A stretch of DNA of 64,000 nt from contig OZ024742.1 of NCBI GenBank assembly GCA_964016885.1, positions 306,156,001 to 306,220,000 of the forward strand, in the 5' to 3' direction. Source of the DNA: Eledone cirrhosa (taxonomy: Eukaryota). Positions 131-54,925 of this stretch are shown here, piece after piece (within the stretch, counting starts at the first letter, position 1; each line of letters begins with the position of its first letter). The position numbers and the translations under genes were made by a program. The notes under the pieces were generated by a model, which saw nothing but the letters and a program-made list of their open reading frames with translations, did not search any database and was not told the origin of the DNA.

Positions 131-1133
131 TGACAGATACATCGAGAGCTAGAGAAAAAGAAGGATAGAGGGGGAGAAAAGGGGAGGGAGAATGAGAAAA
201 GGAAAGATGAATAGATACATAGATGTACATACCTATCAATATGTGTATTTTGAATTCGCAGATATTTATTTATGGTGAAAATTTATTTTTATATAAGGGA
301 ATATGTGTACTTCATATTATGTGTGTTTATACAAATAGAAGTAAAAAATATATACCTCATGGGATTTTATTTCGATATTGTTATTATTGACAAAACATTT
401 ACATACATTAATGTCTAGTCTCCTAACATATATACGCAACTTGAATATGTGTGCATGTGTGTATGTGCGTGTTTGTATATTTACGTATATCCATATATAT
501 GCGTGTGTGTGTGCGTTTGTGTGTATGTATATTTATATGGATATGCATGTGTGTGTGTTTATGTGGATATGTGTGTTTCCCTATATATATATATATACAT
601 ATATATATAGAGAGAGAGAGAGGGGGGGGGGATGCGAATGGTGTGGAAACGTATAACTCGATAAATAATAATCATATCCACATATATTCACACAATTTCA
701 CACCTACATAACCTTGTATAAGCCCCACACACATAGCCACACACATATGTGTACACATTTATAAATATATACACACACACGCACACACACAAACACACAG
801 GTAAACATCCCTTTCTATTCAAATATATATATGTTATATCTTTGTGTGTACATATTTTCATGTATGTATTTTTTCTATAGGTGAGATGATATAACTATAA
901 ATATATATATTTACGCGCAATATACGTGCCGATGAATAATGCGTTATACGAAACAAGTAAGGAAATTTTTGAACAAAACACACAAAATTAAACAAAAATA
1001 ATATAAGAAAATAACAAGAATATTTGAAAGTTTTTACACTTCACAGTTCATTCTTCTCATTGCTAAGGCATCTAATATGAGCGCACAAACATCACACTTT
1101 TGTACACATATATTTATATATAGAGGGATTTAC

Positions 1134-1224
<91 letters not shown>

Positions 1225-1543
1225 CATGTATATGTACACATATAAATATATCCACACTAACACTCATACACACAGAAATATATATGTCTATATATATATA
1301 TATATATAACGTAAGATTTTACATCACTGAATAAACTCACCAAAATTTGATCGGATCAAAAATTCTCTCTAAAAAGTAATAACGAATATAAAATAAATAC
1401 AATTTGGAACATTTCATAAGAATCCACCTTATATATTTATTTATGTATTCATTTATTTATTCATATTTATTAAATTCTATTTATATTTATTTATATTTGC
1501 ATTTTACTTGCCCCCATTATTTGTTCTATCGAGTTTACGATTT

Positions 1544-1584
<41 letters not shown>

Positions 1585-2052
1585 GGGTACTTTGCTTTTT
1601 AGTTCATATGTTCGTATGTTTCTGTGAATACCTCTATATGCGTATAGGTTCTTGTGTTTGCGCAAGCCTGAATGTGTCTTCACGTAAGTCTGTGTCTATG
1701 TGAGTGAGTGTTAAAGAACAATTTTTCTTGGTCGATTTGCTGCATATAGGAAAAATATCTTTTGAAATATTTCGTTAAAGACGCCTATTTGAAACTGTCT
1801 ACTAAATAATCTGTTTTGTTTCCGTGTTGTTTAGCATCTCATACATTCTCCCCCTCTCATAATCATCTTCTCTTCCTCTCCCCTATCTCTCTCACTCTCT
1901 CTCTCTCTCCCCCTCTCTGTTGTATATATATATATATTTATATATATATATATATATATATTCTCACTGACTATTGGCTAACATATACTTATTTCTCTCC
2001 ATACATACATGTATATATATACGTATATATAATCAAATTTAATATAGCAATA

Positions 2053-2102
2053 GCTTCTACAAAACTAGAACTGTTTCATTCAAAAGAGATCATCAGGGAA
2101 GC
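2053..2102 (-). ncRNA. Type I hammerhead ribozyme-like motif
   Basis: Minus strand reads gcttc-c-CTGATGA-tctcttttgaat-GAAA-cag ttctagtt ttg-TA-gaagc. Stem I is gcttc/gaagc, the core is intact and stem II is weak. It lies in a short (TA)n-flanked element (about 2030-2225). Confidence 0.6.
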
Positions 2103-2243
2103 CGACGTTCCTTGTGAAAATGTTGTATTTATATATTTACTGGTGTTTGGGGAAAGCGCTATTGCACCAACTAATCTCCTCACCCCAATTACTACACTGA
2201 ATATACATACACATACATTAAAACTATATATATTATATATATA

Positions 2244-4233
<1,990 letters not shown>

Positions 4234-18317: not shown

Positions 18318-18365
<48 letters not shown>

Positions 18366-18563
18366 TTAGGTTTGTTTGGTTCACCACTGGATAGAACTGG
18401 TTATTCCGTATAGTCAATCTTGGTGTAATATTGTGGAGAGTACTCAACGTAGTGCAGTTCACCCGTCTTCGTTTGTGTAGTTGGTGGTGCGAATACGTAG
18501 TTAAGTATAAATAAAATAAAATAACAGGAGGCCGGACTGGTGTAAATCCTTGAAAGGTTTATT

Positions 18564-18621
18564 ATACTATGATCATTTCAATGACCGGGTTCCATATAAA
18601 TCCGGTGATATCATCAGGTAT
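18564..18621 (-). ncRNA. Type I hammerhead ribozyme
   Basis: atac-CTGATGA-tatcaccgg..ccggtcatt-GAAA-tgatca-TA-gtat, with palindromic stem III TGATCA. Confidence 0.85.
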
Positions 18622-19929
18622 TGGAATATAACAAAGGAATATGTAAAAAACCATGGGTCCTGGAAAATCAGCGACAGAGACAAAGAGGACGACTGACCAA
18701 CTAGCTGCCTTCACCTCGGTCAGTCGACTCAAAGTGATGGCAACTGAATCTACTAATGACCATCTGGAGAGGGAGCGAAGGCTTATAATGCACTACCACC
18801 TCTCCGTCAAAGAAAAAGGGAAGAAAGAAAGAAGTCAGCGTAAGGGTTACACTACATTCATGCTAGAAAATGCCGCGAAAAATGCTACTCCAAAGAATCT
18901 ATATGGTCTAATGTGTGAACCGAAAATTGGAACGATAAACTTATGTTGCTAGTTACAGGATGAAATTAAATTAAATTAAAAATATTAAATTGCAAAATGA
19001 TAAATTGAAAAATAAAATATTAGAAAATTAAAAAATGATTAGAAAATTAAAGGTTAAGGTAGCGAGATTTATTTAATGAACTTACGGAGAGAGTCTTATA
19101 TGAAAAAAGTTATCTCGATAAGATATTAGGATGGGATATAGAGTAAAGATTTCGATTGCTAGTCCCAGCCAGCACCCCCCAACCATGAGTCAGCCAGTTT
19201 CGAGTGGGATCGTCCAGCGAAAGAAATGGAAATTAATTTTTCCGAGTACTCTAGGAACATAGCTACCTTAGGCCCCGGGAGCGCCGGCGGGAAGTCTACA
19301 ATTTCGACAGGCCATCGTCTATACCAAATGAATATTATTAAATCACACGTGAGGGGTTTATTTACGTGCCAGTAGAGGGATGATACAGCCAATAGTCATG
19401 CCTAAATCTGGAGTTTATAGGTATAAGTATAATATGGCGGCCAAAACAGGCGGCGCGGTGGGATCGGGGCAAAGCAACCCGCTCCGAGTAATTTCGTTTA
19501 CCGAAAGAGGAGAAATTTATTTTTTCGAGCACTCAAGGAAGGCTGAACTTTCCGAGTGCCCAGCGCGCAGCCGGGAAAAGCCACCACATAAGTCGAAGGT
19601 AGCAACCCAATGAAAAGTGCAAATAGACCATAATTATTTTAAAGTCCCAGTTAGTCCGGATTATAAGTAGTGTGGTTCTTTGGTGGGTAGAGGGCTATGA
19701 AAGGTGCATAATGACCTGAGTAAGGAAAGTTACAAAAAAATTAATAAAAGCAGGATACAAAGATAAAATACAAATATAAAGATAAAATACATTTATAAAA
19801 TACATTAATAAATTAATAAAAAATTAATAAAAGTAAATAACTAGGGATGTAGACAGACGGAAGTATATAAGAACGTATCGGAGGAATCACAGAGTAGGGG
19901 AAATACAATATAGATGAAGTTGTAGGAAG

Positions 19930-20115
19930 ATAATTGTTTCTACTTTAGGCACAAGGCCATCAATTATCCAGTGCATTACTGGTACTTTATTTTATCGACC
20001 CCGTAAGGATGAAAGGTAAAGTTAACCTCAGCGGGATTTGAACTCAGAATGGCAAGGGCCGTAACTCTATGCGTCAAAGCATTGCGTCCGACTCTCTACC
20101 GATACTGCCAATCCA
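19930..20115 (-). mobile_element. tRNA-derived SINE (same family as 51.6 and 54.7 kb)
   Basis: B-box-like gagttcaaatc and the shared core tttcatccttacggggtcgataaaataaagtaccagtaa occur in three copies in the window. Confidence 0.8.
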
Positions 20116-22380
20116 GCGCCATTGTAGTAAGATAATACAGGTTGTACATATAGATATAGAGGATGGAATAGATGGAATGGTAACACGTGGTACCTAATGT
20201 AAAGTTCGGGTCTCCAAAAATGTTTCTGAGGTATAGAGTAGATAATTCAGTCAATACAATACATGTTTTAGTATAATACGTAGAGTTTTGTCGGAATCGG
20301 AATAATGCCGACAAGGAAGTAGTATCAGGTGGCGGTAGATAAAGCACAGAGCAGCCAAATCCAAATGGTAAGTAGATCAGTTAATCCCATGCTGGCAATA
20401 GCGGTACACTGAAGTCAGTGCCGCTGTTCAATATTACATTTGGAAGTACTCAACATTATTGGAGCATTATTTCTTTAGGCTTGTTGGTTCACCAGTGGAT
20501 AGAACTGGTCATTCCGTATAGTCAATCTTGGTGTAATATTGTGGAGAGTACTCAACGTAGTGCAGTTCATCCGTCTTCGTTTGTGTAGTTGGTGGTGCGA
20601 ATACGGAGTTAATTATAAATAAAATAAAATAACAGGAGGCCGGACTGGTGTAAATCCTTGAAAGTTACTTTAGAACGGAACTGCCTGTTAAACTAATCGC
20701 CCCCTCTAAATCTGTTCTGGGGGTTGTTAGTAAATCCATCTTGGATAGAATTATCCCACAGGTTCGTTCTAATTGCTCTATTTCTAACTTAAATTTATGG
20801 ATGGGTACATCTGATGTAATTCACTGGTTCAATGACCTGAATAATAAAAACAACAAAAATTTATTCAGTTTGACATTGCCAGTTACTATTCTTCTATTTC
20901 GCCTTCACTCCTCAACAACGCTCTCTCTTTTATATTTAAATATTCTGACATTACCACAGATGAACTTTACATCATTCTCACCGCAAGAAAAACTATCCTG
21001 AAATTCAACAACGAATATTGAACTAGAGTTGATACTTCCAACAATTTCGATATCACAATGGGTTCGCCGGATTCAGCGCAATTGACGGACTTGATTGGAA
21101 TCTTTATTTTGAATTCTTTAAATCGAAAACTTCCTCAACTTCGCGGTTGAATGTATCGTGACGATGCTCTTTTTACTGTCTTAAACTGTAACTTAGTTAA
21201 CCTCAATATTATTAAGAATAATATACTTGATCTATTTAAGCACCAGAACATAAAAATTTAATTTGAAAACAACGTGAAACTAGCTAACTTCCTGGATATA
21301 TCCCTTAATCTTGACACCGGCCTATATTACCCTTACCATAAAGACAATGAGAATCTAAATTATGTTAATTTTAAATCTAATCACCCTATTAACGTTAAAA
21401 ATGCTATAGTCAGTAATGTTGAAAAAAGAATCTCAAATCTATCTTCTAATAAAGTTATCTTTGACGCTAAAGCCAATTATTACAATAATGCGATTTCCAG
21501 AGCCGGTTATCCTGACAAAATTAAATACAGTAAAGAAACCAATCATCGAGGGACTTATGGTAATATAGTTAGTTATAAGCATTCCAATAACGCAAAGAAA
21601 AGACCTAGATATAAAAATATGATTTGGTACAACGCTCCTGTTTCTCTATCTATTATTAGTAATATTCCTAAACTATTTTTTAGGGCCTTAGATAAATGCT
21701 TCCCTCCCTCGCATATTTATAGTAAGATCTTTAATAAACATACAATTAAATTCTCTTATTCCACCACTTCCAACATCTCTAACATTATCTCTAAACATAA
21801 TAATAAAATATTATAAAAGTAATAAAGTATATCCATCCAACACTGCGCGTCATAATAATAGCAATAGTAAACCCGACGTCAATCTTAACTCTAGGCTAGA
21901 TTCCATAAATTTAAATACGGCGTCAAACGTAACTTTGTCGAATGTTCATAATACCAATCTAAATCAGGAAACTTTAGCACCTATCGTAAATAACTTCTCC
22001 AATTCAATTCCTTCTATTAATAATACTGGGTCACTCTGGTAATTTCTCTAATCGTAATTGCAATTGCCCTGTTAGAACTAAATGTCCTCTTAGTAACCAA
22101 TGTCTTGATAAAAATTTAGTGTATGAATGTAAGGTTATAACTGATACTAATTATTTTACCTATTTTGGGTCCACTTCCATTTCCTTTAAAGCAAGATTTT
22201 ATAATCACAATTCTTCTTTTAAATACCGACTTAAAAGAACTAACACGGCACTCTCAGAACTCATATGGTCCTTAAAGGACAAACATATTAACTACAATAT
22301 TTCTTGGAGGAAGGTTTGCAGCGCCTCTCCTTACCTGAATTCTTCCCTATCCAGAACATGTAATCTCTGCCTAGCGGAGA

Positions 22381-22860
22381 AATTTACCATTATCTCTAAT
22401 TTTAATTCTATAATAAATAGTCGTACGGATTTATATTCGCTCTGCTTGCATAAATCCCATAGAACTTTTCATAAAGTATACAGCTAATATCTTACTACCT
22501 AATTAGTTTAAAATCTTCTTTTCTCAAACGCTTTTATATTTTTTACAAATATACCCATCCGTCTACCTTATTTCAGTATATTATAAAATATTACTGATAC
22601 TATATCGTTAGCGGTCCCCTTAATTTACCATTATCTCTAATTTTAATTCTATAATAAATAGACGTACGGATTTATTTTCGCTCTGCTTGCATAAATCTCA
22701 TGGAACTTTCCATAAAGTATACAGCTAATATCTTACTACCTAATTAGTTTAAAATCTTCTTTTGTCAAACGCTTTTATATTTTTTACAAATATACCTATC
22801 TTTCTACCTTATTTCAGTATATTATACAATATTACTCATACTATGTCGTTAGCGGTCCCC
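22381..22860 (+). repeat. About 240-bp tandem duplication spanning the endonuclease stop and start of the 3' UTR
   Basis: aatttaccattatctctaatt..gttagcggtcccct occurs at 22381-22621 and again at 22622-22861. Confidence 0.9.
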
Positions 22861-23641
22861 TATTTTTCTTCTTTTTTCTTCTTTTTTTAATTTCTAATCT
22901 TTAATCTGCAACTTTTACTTCTCAATTACTTCTTAATTCATATTATAACTCACTATAGCATTTTCCTTATATTCTCGGCCATACTAATATTACCATTAGT
23001 GAAATTTTGTAAACATATATTCTTTGGACGTTATATATTTTTTCTTCCTTGAATTTCTTCTTTCTTCTCTCCTTCCGTGCTCGTATTAAACCTATTATTT
23101 ACTTTTTCCTTTTACAATACATAGAAACAAACTTGGAACCTAATTAATTCCTCTAAGTTCATAATTATTTAACCTTATCTTCATTCACCTTATCTTCTTA
23201 ATATATTTTATTTTAATAATACATTTTAATAAATTCCTTTTCGCACTTATTATTAAACCCTTCAATATTCTTAATTCCCTTTTTCTTTAATCATAAACCT
23301 CATTAACTTTTATTTCTAAATTTTTTTCAAATTATGTATTATCTTACAACGGTTTTTTTTAATTTCTCTCTGTGAGACAATGTTTCTCAGTATTAAAGGT
23401 TATCTCTCTCTCTCACTCATTTTCTCCTCCTCTCTCATCCTTCCTTTTCCTCCTCCGTCATCCTTTCTTTATTATTATTTTTTTTTATTATTATATTCTT
23501 TCTTCCTCTTCCTTACCTTTTCCTTCCCCCCTTCCTTTCCTTTTTTCCCAATCTCATATATCCATCTTATTTTATTTTTCATATGTTGATTTAACACTTC
23601 ACTGCTCACAAGTGTTTTTTAAGCTTCATATCATGTCTCCC

Positions 23642-23712
23642 TATTTTATCTGATGAGAACGCAAATATCATCCCATGATGATATTTGTTTTTGAAATGTG
23701 CATAATAAAATA
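23642..23712 (+). ncRNA. Type I hammerhead ribozyme in PLE 3' UTR
   Basis: tattttat-CTGATGA-gaacgcaaatatcatc ccat gatgatatttgttttt-GAAA-tgtgca-TA-ataaaata. Confidence 0.9.
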
Positions 23713-23836
23713 CATGGCACTCTTTTAACCATCTTTTGATCTTATATTATTTATACTCCACTCCTATAAACTGTTGAGTGCTACTTATCCGATATTTGAA
23801 TTGTTTTATTGTGCTACAATAAAACTCACCTCCTAC

Positions 23837-23879
<43 letters not shown>

Positions 23880-23889
23880 AACAAGTAAG

Positions 23890-23983
23890 ACCCCGACGGC
23901 TGAGCTCAACCCGTTTCGACGGCTAATTCTGTACTGAATGAAAATTTATTCTGGTATTTAAATAGCCGAGCTTATCAAGGGGT
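23890..23983 (-). ncRNA. Type I hammerhead with U3-A8 covariant core (left arm)
   Basis: acccc-TTGATAA-gctcggcta..tagccgtc-GAAA-cgggttgagctcagccg-TC-ggggt. Confidence 0.8.
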
Positions 23984-25627
23984 AATTCCATATATGGTCA
24001 AAGAGATAATCACCAGGATTGGTCACATCACAAGTTAGTAGTAAATCTGTGATGGCAAATTGGTGGGGGAAGGGGTAGCTAAACCTGCCGGTAGGAGAAA
24101 AAGGGAGAGGGGGTGGAGTAGATCCATTCATGCGTTGGTAGTGCCAGCTATAGCTGGGCGTGAGGTCAAAGAGGATACTGGGGAGGGGGAGGGGGAGGAG
24201 GTCGAAACGGTAAGTAGAACAATGAGGGTAAAACTATAAAAGGTACTGAGAGAGAAAAAAAAAAAAAAGCAAAGTCTGGTTACTAAGACTAAAGTCTCTC
24301 GCTATTACTAAGCTAAAGAAATACATAAATAAATAAATAAACAAATAAGTGAATAAAAGAATAGTTAAATAAATTTGAAAAAAAAAAAAATATATATATA
24401 TAATAAAAAAAAAAATATATATATAATGAAGAATAAAAAAATAAATAATAATAATAAAAATAAACTAGGTGGGACGGAAATAAAGGGACCCTTATACGAG
24501 GTATAAGTGCGTGTATCGTACGGTGACGGGTCAACAAAGGGGGGGGGGGGGGGCAAAATACTAAAGAGACTACCACGAAATAATAAAGGTTTCTACCCCA
24601 ATCACAGGGCCAGCAACCACCCAGTGCAAGAAAGTAAACTAGTACGAGAATATCATTCAGGGTCCCGCCAAAAAATACTAGTGCCAACTCTAAGGGTACG
24701 GCCACGAAACAAAAAGTCTTATACAAGCTACATGAAAGATCGTACGAAGTAAAAGTAAAGAACGGAAAATAAATACAGGAACTGGTTACTGCATGTAAAC
24801 ACCGATTATGTAGGACTTACCTCGCCCTCAAACCCCATAATGACCCGGGGGGTTAGACTAGGGCTATAACACCCGACTTGCCTATTTTGTAATGAGTAAC
24901 CCCTGCTTGCCAATGGAGACGTAAGATCTTCTTTTACATTCTTTTATCGCTTCCTCTATATTTCCTCCTTCCCCCCATCCCTCCCTAGTCCTTCTACCCC
25001 AGTTCCTTTTCTTTGTCGTCGTCTTTTTCTCGCCCACCCGAGGTAGCCCATCGGTCCCTTGTAGCTTCAGCACCCCCACCCCCCTCCCCTATTCTATGAT
25101 AGATTTGGCTGACTCCAGAGGTGTTAGACTTCTGATACTCGCCCCCTTCTCCGACCGCTGTCCCTTTTTTCCGTGCCTTCTATATTTCTTAGTGGCATCT
25201 TTGCTTTAATTTCTCGTTTATCCAGTATTTCTTTCTTCTTTTTCCCCTTTTTTTTTTGGGGGGGGGGGGGTGTTCTTGTATTAATTTTCCGTTCTTTACT
25301 TTTACTTCGTACGATCTTTCATGTAACTTATATAAGACTTTTTGTTTCGTGGCGGTACCCTTAGAGTTAGCACTAGTATTTTTTGGCGGGACCCTGAATT
25401 ATATTCTCGTACTAGTTTACTTTCTTGCACTGGGTGGTTGCTGGCCCTGTGATTGGGGTAGAAACCTTTATTATTTCGTGGTAGTCTCTTTAGTATTTTG
25501 CCCCCCCCCCCTTGTTGACCCGTCACCGTACGATACACGCACTTATACCTCGTATAAGGGTCCCTTTATTTCCGTCCCACCTAGTTTATTTTTATTATTA
25601 TTATTTATTTTTTTAATCTTCATTATA

Positions 25628-25661
<34 letters not shown>

Positions 25662-26060
25662 TTTTAAATTTATTTATCTATTCTTTTATTCACTTATTTG
25701 TTTATTTATTTATTTATGTATTTCTTTAGCCTAGCAAAAGCGAGAGGCTTAAGTCTTAGTAACCAGACTTTGCTTATTTTTTTTTTTTTCTCTCTCAGTA
25801 CCTTTTATCGTTTTACCCTCATTGTTCTACTTACCGTTTCGACCTCCTCCCCCTCCCCCTCCCCAGTATCCTCTTTGACCTCACGCCCAGCTGTAGCTGG
25901 CACTACCAACGCATGAATGGGTCTACTCCACCCCCTCTCCCCTTTTCTCCTACCGGCAGGTTTAGCTACCCCTTCCCCCACCAATTTGCAATCACAGATT
26001 TACTACTAACTTGTGATGTGACCAATCCTGGTAATTTTCTGTTTGACCATATATGGAATT

Positions 26061-26154
26061 ACCCCTTGATAAGCTCGGCTATTTAAATACCAGAATAAAT
26101 TTTCATTCAGTACAGAATTAGCCGTCGAAACGGCTTGAGCTCAGCCGTCGGGGT
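26061..26154 (+). ncRNA. Type I hammerhead with U3-A8 covariant core (right arm)
   Basis: acccc-TTGATAA-gctcggcta..(54 nt)..tagccgtc-GAAA-cggct tgagctc agccg-TC-ggggt. All three stems pair and the cleavage site is GUC. Confidence 0.85.
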
Positions 26155-26245
26155 CTTACATGTTCCTATTACCCACTCTACTACCCTAAGTATTGAGTAC
26201 TATGGTGCGTTATGGCCCACCTGGTTCCTTACCACATTTCCTTCG

Positions 26246-37350: not shown

Positions 37351-38610
37351 CTGAAGACCTCAATACTTAGACATTTGTAAATCTATAAACTTTATAGTAC
37401 CTGTGTAAATATATAAGATTTATATGGCCAGTGTATTATACATATGGCATGTCTAAATCTGTATAATTCCTATGACTTGTGTGAATCTATATAACTTATA
37501 GAAACATATCATGTGTTACATTTGAGATCACTTTGAGTGTGATGGTAAAAATGAGAGGTTTCTGCTATGCAAGGTAATGCGGATTACCTAATTTTCTTTT
37601 GTCTGTTCGCACCCAGATGTAGATTGGTGTAAAATATTTATAGACGGAACGATAGATTTTGTATATTTTGGGTTTCCTAATCTTATATTAAATCTCATGA
37701 AATTCCGATTGATTAGTGTTAACTACTGTTGCATATCTCATCTAAATGTTGCTATTTCTATGGGTATATTAAAATGAATAATACTTTAATTATTCTTTTT
37801 TTTTAGGGGGGGGGGGGGGGGGGGGGGGGGCTTCAGCAAAACCTATTTGCCTCTAAATTTCCAAGTAACAGTTAGCAAAATTAATTTAGAGAGTCTTATA
37901 CGTGAACGGGGTTAGATCAGTCATGCGGTCATGTTTTAGCGATTAATCCTAATCACTCATAAAAAGTTAATTAATATCTTATCCATTAATTAAGCTTTTG
38001 CCAAATTATGATTTTACCCAAGTACTCACATAGTATATAAAATTAAGTCGATGAATTTCACTTGAAAATTTACACATGATCTGTAACCAGAGTCTAAGTT
38101 ATTGGATATCTAAAGCAAATATATCATTTAAAGTTAATACAATATAGTTTAACCATATTAATTTAAATATTTTCGTACAATCTTTTGAATTAAATTATTT
38201 CATTAAAGACACTCCTAATTATAAGCAATACGCCTATGCCTTCGATGGTTTCAAGAAAGTAAGGTTTAATACTAGGTGTAATGCACTGGCGTTTACAAAA
38301 ACGATATACTATCAAATTCAAATAAAAGATCTATTTTCAAGCAATGAGTAATACTTACTTTCGTTTCATTTATTATAATATTGAAAGAAATATATATACG
38401 TCGCATTCCAATTATAGATTTATTATTCTACGCACACATTTTTTTAAATAGCATTGTCGTTAAACAGGGGTTACTCCTCATACAAAGAGATTATATCATG
38501 AAGGAAATATTTCTAGAAATGTCAAACAAATGCTAAAATGATGATAGTCATTTCTCTTATTATTAGCAACAAATTATCATTGAATATTCATTACAAGCTG
38601 TTTAACAAAA

Positions 38611-38763
38611 TGTGATCTTATCAGCTTAATATCTGATACGGCCCTTATATAAGACCATCGATATTAAACGGATTTTTAGAACGATGTGAAGAGATAGGGA
38701 CTTGCTCTGTCCTTGCCATGGGTTGGCCTGGTAATGCAGTACTTCTAGGATTCAGCCCATCCC
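38611..38763 (+). pseudogene. U2: 5'-truncated U2 snRNA copy (lacks the first about 38 nt, including the branch-point recognition sequence)
   Basis: tcttatcagcttaatatctgatacg (stem IIa), Sm site ggatttttag, stem III loop cttgctc, and stem-loop IV cctggtaatgcagtacttctagga. Confidence 0.9.
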
Positions 38764-38928
38764 CCACCCGTTAGATAAAATTAATTTAAAAAAAAGCATA
38801 CACAATATTTAACTATATTTGCAGCATATAGCAATGTCACCGAAGTTTCGTTCATATAAAGTGTCCTTAATATTGGAATTTCTTAAAACCGATATATGAC
38901 CCTCAATGTGTATATATATTTTATGCTC

Positions 38929-51569: not shown

Positions 51570-51785
51570 CTGGTGGATTGGAAGTATCGGTAGAGACTCG
51601 GACACCATGCTTTGCAAAAAAAAATTATGCTCCTTTCCGGTCTGAGTTCAAAACCCGCCGAGTTTAACTTTGCTTTTCATCCTGACGGGGTCGAAAAAAT
51701 AAAGCACCAGTAATGTACTGGGGTCGATTTTTCGACTTTGCCCACCCCCAAAGCCTTGTGTCTATAGTAGAAATCATTATTATCG
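51570..51785 (+). mobile_element. tRNA-derived SINE
   Basis: ctgagttcaaa B-box and body shared with the 19.9 and 54.7 kb copies, plus an (att) tail. Confidence 0.8.
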
Positions 51786-54694: not shown

Positions 54695-54925
54695 GGTAGG
54701 GCGGTGGATTATCAGTATCGGTAAAGCCTCGGGCGCCATGCTTTGCAGCATAGATTTATGGCCCTTTACGTTCTGAGTTCAAATCACGCCGAGGTTAGCT
54801 TTGCCTTTCATCCTTACGGGGGTCGATAAAATAAAGCACCAGTAATACACTGGGGTTCGATTTAATCGACTTTTTCCTCCTCCACATTCCTGGCCTTTTG
54901 CCTATACTAGAAATTATTATTTTAT
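54695..54925 (+). mobile_element. tRNA-derived SINE
   Basis: ttctgagttcaaatcacgccgaggttagctttgcctttcatccttacggg..., ending in an attattatt tail. Confidence 0.85.

Follow-up and report, generated by a model that had tools for sequence, protein, structure and literature searches.

A composite insert in a (TA)n microsatellite

We analysed a stretch of 64,000 nucleotides (nt) of the Eledone cirrhosa genome (assembly GCA_964016885.1, contig OZ024742.1, positions 306,156,001 to 306,220,000 of the forward strand), hereafter the window. It holds an insert of 5.48 kb between two (TA)n flanks, which consists of two unrelated elements joined 5' end to 5' end. One is an arm of family A, a non-coding unit with a predicted hammerhead ribozyme; the other is an arm of family B, which is a Hydra-clade Penelope-like element (PLE). 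At both outer ends, a 3' end typical of the family lies against TA (end clusters E05 and E01). Coordinates without a locus name are window positions, and loci numbered with an L are further stretches of the 3.0-Gb genome that were fetched for comparison. The features are listed in Table 1.

The two arms meet without TA or filler. Full-length B copies read ...cacaAAAG/TAACTTTCGAACGG at this point and the window reads ...ccttgAAAG/TTACTTTAGAACGG, while A itself would continue ...gAAAG/GTTTATT. The AAAG is therefore common to both partners. Apart from this overlap, a sensitive blastn comparison of A with B gave only short low-complexity matches, and tblastn gave none. The anatomy and the joint are read directly from the assembled sequence. 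The original prediction, made from the letters alone, had placed two unrelated elements head to head in a single (TA)n site, with a TA-less 5' joint at about 20661-20664 and the A arm starting 11 nt after its own predicted cleavage site. This was borne out almost to the base: 20664 equals 18556, the cut is predicted between 18568 and 18567, and the joint carries the AAAG overlap and no TA.

A 240-nt query across the joint was searched against the genome, and 40 of 2556 candidates were scored. Only the window locus spans the joint; the other 40 matches cover one half each, with the B-half matches beginning at query base 117, within AAAG. Because no other scored match spans the joint, the composite is not a repeated unit. 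An apparent clustering of B 5' ends near the window break point (L038, L112) was explained by the ranking of the matches and was dropped.

Table 1. Features of the composite insert and of the rest of the window (window positions).
Feature	Position	Strand	Remarks
Left (TA)n flank	18321-18363		adjoins 3' end of family A
Family A arm	18364-20664	minus	2108-nt non-coding unit plus 194-nt terminal repeat; long-type 3' end at TA
Family A tail	18364-18505	minus	from short-type 3' end site (18506) to long-type 3' end
Family A hammerhead-like motif	18564-18621	minus	predicted cut between 18568 and 18567
SINE-like repeat nested in family A	19930-20125	minus	missing from many A copies
Family A terminal repeat, 5' copy	20468-20664	minus	equals 18359-18556
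Joint	20661-20664/20665		AAAG microhomology, 4 nt; no TA, no filler
Family B arm	20665-23841	plus	dead 5'-truncated PLE, Hydra clade; long-type 3' end at TA
Remains of RT / GIY-YIG frame	20660-22487	plus	residues 105-715 of the 715-residue open frame of L037
Family B 3' untranslated tandem duplication	22381-22862	plus	241 nt, 95%
Family B hammerhead motif	23642-23712	plus	predicted cut between 23704 and 23705
Family B tail	23756-23841	plus	from short-type end site (23755) to long-type end
Right (TA)n flank	23841-23877		common to the insert and element G
Element G	23878-26166		two-armed; 23878-24782 is an inverted copy of 25272-26166 (95%, 907 nt)
U2 spliceosomal RNA gene	38586-38765	plus	Rfam RF00004, 79.3 bits, E 5.6e-14
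SINE-like repeat, other copies	51574-51721, 54700-54853

How families A and B normally insert

Both families commonly occur in a two-armed form, in which an inverted, 5'-truncated partner of the same family stands at the 5' end. This form was found at 12 of 18 distinct A loci and 16 of 20 long-B loci. The gaps between the arms are mostly -8 to +20 nt, and the window joint is alike in this respect. We also observed that each family uses two fixed 3' ends. In family A the short type ends at query position 2159 (62 nt past the cut) and the long type at 2302 (205 nt past it). In family B the short type ends at reference position 3590 (51 nt past the cut) and the long type at 3673 (134 nt past it).

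In an automated tally, every classifiable same-family pair combined one short and one long end (43/43: A 13/13, B 27/27, A' 3/3, where A' is a relative of A described below). The tally covered the fetched loci L003-L120, with 20 further rows set aside where an arm ran off the locus or ended elsewhere. The simplest explanation of this one-of-each rule would be that the two DNA ends prime on a single RNA molecule. Single arms use either end type, and all ends run into TA. We dropped the idea that long-ended B arms occur only in pairs, given five short, unpaired long-ended arms (L056, L057, L058, L061, L074) and L103. The idea that single short-ended arms conceal a tiny long arm failed in all eight of the junctions read (8/8), while L120 does carry a long arm of 30 nt.

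The 5' ends also show a pattern. The A arm of the composite starts at 20664, a position that we denote X+12 and that lies 11 nt past the predicted hammerhead cut. Among 73 occurrences in the fetched loci of the motif just downstream, only the window and L084 begin there, the L084 start being the homologous base in A', in a mixed pair. A genome-wide pattern search for X+12 starts gave six matches, one of which was the window. Two others (L123, L127) are pairs of one family in which an arm begins at that base; we therefore dropped the idea that such starts occur only in mixed pairs. In another match (L126, 1497-1510), an A arm skips exactly X+3 to X+11, i.e. the interval between the predicted cut and the X+12 stop. 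The other two are apparent one-base deletions, judged from the matched string alone. In addition, one family A arm begins at the cut itself (L018). X+12 is thus a recurrent stop of family A complementary DNA (cDNA). Because the window arm starts at this stop, we read it as a complete cDNA and not as a stump trimmed by a later deletion.

For family B, a genome-wide pattern for arms starting at the predicted cut gave 39 matches. Sixteen of these, preceded by CGC or TGC, were set aside as internal ATA-deletion variants; nine of the remaining 23 are preceded by TAT. Six B mini-pairs (L144, L145, L148, L149, L154, L158) have essentially the same joint, between an arm starting near reference position 3416 and an arm starting at the predicted cut. 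This shared joint could represent two run-off cDNAs, one from cut and one from uncut RNA, or the joint itself may have been copied.

Family A, a non-coding unit

The family A unit measures 2108 nt, or 1.9 kb without a nested repeat that resembles a short interspersed nuclear element (SINE). In the window, the direct repeat that defines the unit (18359-18556 and 20468-20664) is 96% identical over 198 nt, with a spacing of 2108. The longest stop-to-stop frames are 94 amino acids on the unit's own strand and 101 on the opposite strand, and no similarity to the family B protein was found. The genome has 6614 first-look candidates, and tandem arrays of the unit occur in L008/L012 and L113.

A related non-coding family of 400 nt, which we call A', has about 4000 candidates and has a 3' module in common with A at about 77% identity. 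A diverged relative of A in L009 was considered as an autonomous partner of A and rejected, as it belongs to A'. The SINE-like repeat is about 190 nt long with a tRNA-like 5' part; it forms 5'-truncated inserts in (TA)n as the PLE families do, and was also met in L030, L058, L084 and L088.

Family B, a PLE of the Hydra clade

The family B arm corresponds to positions 642-3673 of a 3673-nt reference copy (L037:854-4526), the first 641 nt being absent. What is left of its reverse transcriptase (RT) frame has three in-frame stops and lies in pieces in frames 1, 3, 1 and 2; the copy is dead. There are 7339 first-look candidates for family B in the genome. No copy with a complete frame was seen among those inspected, the best being the 715-residue open stretch in L037. 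The 241-nt duplication of the window copy is also present in L022 and L023 and is therefore a trait of a subfamily.

The marks of the Hydra clade are DKT in place of DKG, a CxCX5C linker, CxxC and CxH around conserved E and N residues, a GIY-YIG domain that lacks CCHH, a hammerhead, insertion in (TA)n and a length generally below 3 kb (Craig et al. 2021, PMC8557442). An intact relative, P0001, has DKT for DKG (HSDKT) and the CxCX5C linker (CNCPVRTKC), as in this clade. A putative C-terminal GIY-YIG-like block can be read in it (VYECKV...YFGSTS...R..H, CNLC, E, N, CLH), with CxxC and CxH around the conserved E and N and, judged by eye, no CCHH. Family B itself shows (TA)n insertion, a pseudo-long terminal repeat (pseudo-LTR), inverted copies and a hammerhead motif within the repeat, all of them Hydra clade marks. 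The unit in L037 exceeds the usual length at 3673 nt. Family B is a Hydra-clade PLE.

Homologues are plentiful (204, of about 700 residues each and mostly on contigs of 2.2-3 kb). P0001 had no match in Pfam even at E<=10, and among 40 homologues one scored RVT_1 and one scored GIY-YIG. Sequence searches of the PDB with the B protein and with a 40-member profile also gave no match. An AlphaFold model (AF2) of P0001, built on 40 homologues, reached a mean predicted confidence (pLDDT) of 80.9. In Foldseek this model matched reverse transcriptases best, and the highest query TM-scores (0.36-0.38) came from TERT chains. The predicted fold thus indicates that the family B protein is a TERT-related reverse transcriptase, for which the sequence itself gives weak support.

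Upstream of full-length B copies, part of their own 3' region stands repeated in direct orientation (L025, L027, L029, L031, L034, L037). One of the two possibilities that, according to the original prediction, would undo it was that the 2.1-kb unit is this PLE family's own pseudo-LTR. Because B copies carry a pseudo-LTR made of B sequence, and because A and B have only low-complexity matches in common, A is not the pseudo-LTR of B. In L132 (about 1500-2000), the B-type sequence found after the ribozyme cut follows on from unrelated sequence in three places, perhaps the mark of a further non-autonomous family that borrows the B 3' module.

Hammerhead motifs

The putative ribozymes of A and B have the layout of the minimal PLE type: CUGAUGA, a long helix II, GAAA, a one-pair helix III with a palindromic loop, UA and the cut. 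In family A the parts are CTGATGA (18617-18611), GAAA (18579-18576) and the palindromic TGATCA, followed by TA. The loop of the B motif is TGTGCA in the window copy and TGCGCA in most copies. The cores are kept in 30 A-type and 26 B copies. Helix I shows a compensatory exchange, with A-U in 23 A copies and G-C in 6 A' copies. Also in favour, though indirect as regards cleavage, are the family B arms that start exactly at the predicted cut. Counting against the assignment, a U.U stands at 10.1/11.1 in all 33 of 33 distinct A-type copies. Four Rfam searches (at the gathering score, at E<=10 over 7 kb, and with two 131-nt windows) found no hammerhead, and single-sequence folds are unexceptional (z -0.53 for A and -2.08 for B). 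At the level of motifs, both may be hammerheads of the minimal PLE variant, each with a predicted cut.

Other mixed pairs

In fetched loci totalling about 540 kb we met three other direct mixed head-to-head pairs, none of which had been sought. L118 joins an A arm to an arm of another two-ended family, F, both of them long-ended. L084 joins a full-length SINE to a short-ended A' arm, and L058 sets a SINE against a B pair. A census that used no repeat library took in 629 inter-TA segments, about 85 of them bounded on either side by a recognised 3' end; mixed direct pairs make up a few per cent of these. The short-ended A' arm of L084 led us to drop the idea that mixed pairs are always long plus long. 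Two further candidates, L044 and L008, were rejected as separate insertions with impure TA between them.

Two arrangements were noted beside these pairs. In L030 and L058, a SINE 5' end directly adjoins a short-type B end, which may reflect a template change within one cDNA or a sequential insertion. In L070 (1080-1520), the 5' end of an A arm recurs in inverted form beyond a palindromic (CA)n(TA)n(TG)n microsatellite and then adjoins a long-type B end with no TA.

One integration event or two

We infer that the composite was made in one integration event in which two different RNAs were used. This is the best of the readings that we weighed, and we hold it with evenly balanced confidence. In such a co-insertion, a PLE endonuclease would cut both strands of the microsatellite, and each freed 3' end would prime reverse transcription on a different RNA, at the long-type start site of that RNA. 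The A cDNA would run to its usual stop 11 nt past the ribozyme cut, and the B cDNA would end 641 nt before reaching the start of the unit. The cDNAs could then anneal at their 3' ends through AAAG/CTTT, each being extended on the other.

Co-insertion is favoured because the composite has the form of the single-event two-armed inserts that dominate both families, because its 5' ends adjoin directly with an overlap of a few bases, and because the A arm ends at a recurrent stop. It is also favoured because the arms are equally diverged, because other mixed pairs exist, and because in vitro both strands of the target are extended by a PLE protein in purified form (Frangieh et al. 2024, PMC11167929).

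Several observations weigh against this reading. First, the window pair breaks the end rule, as both of its arms are long-ended (A at query 2302, B at reference 3673). The window pair therefore did not arise by the same process, in every detail, as the same-family pairs. Second, when single arms were counted by hand, roughly one in three lacked TA at the 5' junction, so that a TA-less joint is not diagnostic. Third, mixed pairs are rare. Neither the 34 A loci nor the 67 B loci held a second joint between A and B. Fourth, in L070 and L097 the two families lie in one and the same microsatellite, separated by TA or CA/TA, and element G is an independent same-family two-armed insert in the very microsatellite of the composite, sharing its right TA tract. 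(The first 54-62 nt of G are a very common mini two-armed repeat among the fetched loci.) Last, the arms can be dated only weakly: A differs from its family majority at 58 of 1540 sites (3.8%) and B at 94 of 3070 (3.1%; 68 of 1788, or 3.8%, in the reading frame), figures to be read against a median divergence of about 4.4-4.5% in both families and against the choice of the compared copies for their likeness to the window copy.

Much of this would suit two independent single-arm insertions, made in opposite orientation in the same (TA)n tract, the second landing at the edge of the first or erasing the TA between them and being sealed through AAAG. (TA)n is the target of both families, arms of either end type occur singly, and the tract took at least one more insertion, that of element G. 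The shared microsatellites of L070 and L097 and the TA-less junctions of single arms fit as well. Two long-type ends could also come from unlinked single arms, whereas all of the classifiable one-event pairs are short plus long. Such a history requires, however, two single-arm events of the minority type and an exact landing that left no TA and removed nothing from an A arm ending at a recurrent stop. Moreover, no mixed 5'-to-5' pair with a TA remnant was present in the sample, against three direct ones, and the arms are equally diverged. We consider sequential insertion a real possibility, albeit one that we rather doubt.

That both remaining arms are long-ended would also be accounted for if two neighbouring same-family pairs, A short plus long and B short plus long, had been fused by a later microhomology-mediated deletion of both short arms and the TA between them. 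AAAG suits a deletion of this kind, and clusters of insertions in one tract are common. The end point of the deletion would have to hit X+12 by chance, though, which is one position in a 2108-nt unit. Three events would be needed, and no relic of either short arm is present. We think this history very unlikely.

A final concern is misassembly, in which two repeats would have been falsely linked at the joint. The repeats on both sides occur in high copy number. The public contigs examined came from one sample of the same organism and from one other organism, the latter not covering the unique left flank. No contig of the same sample covers 20645-20745 at 98% identity, which would suit an artefact and leaves the joint known from the assembly; as these contigs drop rare variants, the gap in coverage is no evidence either way. 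False joins come about through shared repeat sequence, and A and B share 4 nt only, and the whole insert is framed by TA with family-typical ends. An artefact is thus the least probable of the explanations considered, and we give it hardly any credence.

The original prediction had proposed co-insertion by template switching or twin priming. Of that proposal, the anatomy, the joint and the two-armed form agree with what we found; the broken end rule and the frequency of repeated insertions in such tracts speak against it. If the composite does come from one event, it would physically record that one enzyme complex handled two unrelated RNAs, and it would offer a simple read-out, genomic and in vitro, of template choice by PLE reverse transcriptases. 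If two sequential insertions made it, the locus is merely an example of microsatellite crowding. The mechanism of integration is constrained more firmly by family-wide regularities than by this locus. These are the fixed start sites, two per family, the strict combination of a short with a long end when a family pairs with itself, and arms whose ends coincide with the ribozyme cut or lie close to it.

Mobilisation of family A

With a foreign homologue as the query, we found many apparently intact, stop-free Hydra-type frames (714, 719 and 758 residues). This search gave 92,304 first-look candidates, of which L159-L198 were fetched. Hydra-clade PLEs look recently active in this genome. The 40 intact Hydra-type loci examined contain no A, A' or F sequence and no A-like 3' module that would point to an autonomous partner of A.

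The further claim that this PLE type mobilises foreign hammerhead RNAs went beyond the data, given several other intact Hydra-clade families and 40 loci with no A-like 3' module. A single event, if real, implies that some PLE complex handled both RNAs, and not specifically the protein of B. We suggest, tentatively and with less than even confidence, that one particle of a Hydra-type PLE can carry two different RNAs and copy them into the genome together, in a single two-armed event. If so, mixed pairs would be natural records of the trans-mobilisation of non-coding ribozyme elements and SINEs, and the pattern of ends (long plus long or short plus long) would tell two-RNA from one-RNA events.

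Comparison with known systems

In L1 elements, twin priming inverts part of one RNA, and the known template-switch chimeras are head-to-tail. As we read it, the composite would resemble these in having a second priming or a template change within one integration. It would differ from them in that two different RNAs each give their own 3' end.

Family B shares with the Hydra clade, as described by Craig et al. (2021, PMC8557442), its motifs, a putative C-terminal GIY-YIG-like domain, a hammerhead motif and the (TA)n target, and differs by its 3.67-kb unit and by the absence of a Pfam score. The non-autonomous Chlamys elements of the same source, e.g. MRC1, are non-coding like family A; they form pseudo-LTRs and head-to-tail arrays and depend on a PLE. 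They share their 3' ends, however, with a known autonomous family, and no such family appeared for A in the 40 intact Hydra-type loci.

Family A can also be compared with the non-LTR retrozymes of metazoans, which are non-coding, hammerhead-bearing units of about 170-400 nt that occur as circular RNA (Cervera and de la Pena 2020, PMC7229834). That PLEs move such non-coding hammerhead repeats has, in the portions of these sources drawn on, been proposed and not shown (PMC7229834; Li et al. 2026, bioRxiv 10.64898/2026.07.22.740005). Family A is alike in being non-coding, in carrying a hammerhead-like motif and in its capacity for tandem arrangement, and retrozymes are proposed to borrow PLE enzymes. 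The A unit is 2.1 kb and not 170-400 nt, has a putative ribozyme of the minimal PLE type, and is known here from DNA.

The enzymology of a two-armed insert is supplied by the purified Poseidon PLE (PAc), which in vitro cuts both strands and then extends them (Frangieh et al. 2024, PMC11167929). Its reverse transcription starts at two internal sites, the interval between them equals the genomic tail, and a dimer is predicted. Both sites lie downstream of the hammerhead and correspond to the short and long ends of families A and B. PAc belongs to the Penelope/Poseidon clade, and in the part of the study available to us a single RNA was supplied and no two-template product is described; in families A and B, moreover, the start sites run into TA.

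A close parallel is a known feature of PLE insertions, whose 5' end carries a copy that is inverted and truncated at its own 5' end (Craig et al. 2021, PMC8557442, citing Evgen'ev and Arkhipova 2005). In a non-exhaustive search of the literature by title or abstract, supplements not included, we found no mixed two-armed PLE insertions. The composite shares with the known form the head-to-head arms, the 5' truncation, the outer 3' ends and the microsatellite target. As far as the part of that paper used here goes, the known form joins the same element twice, with the tail on one side, whereas the window joins unrelated families, both with a tail. The composite can thus be seen, in a plausible though unproven interpretation, as a rare mixed-family version of this known PLE insertion form.

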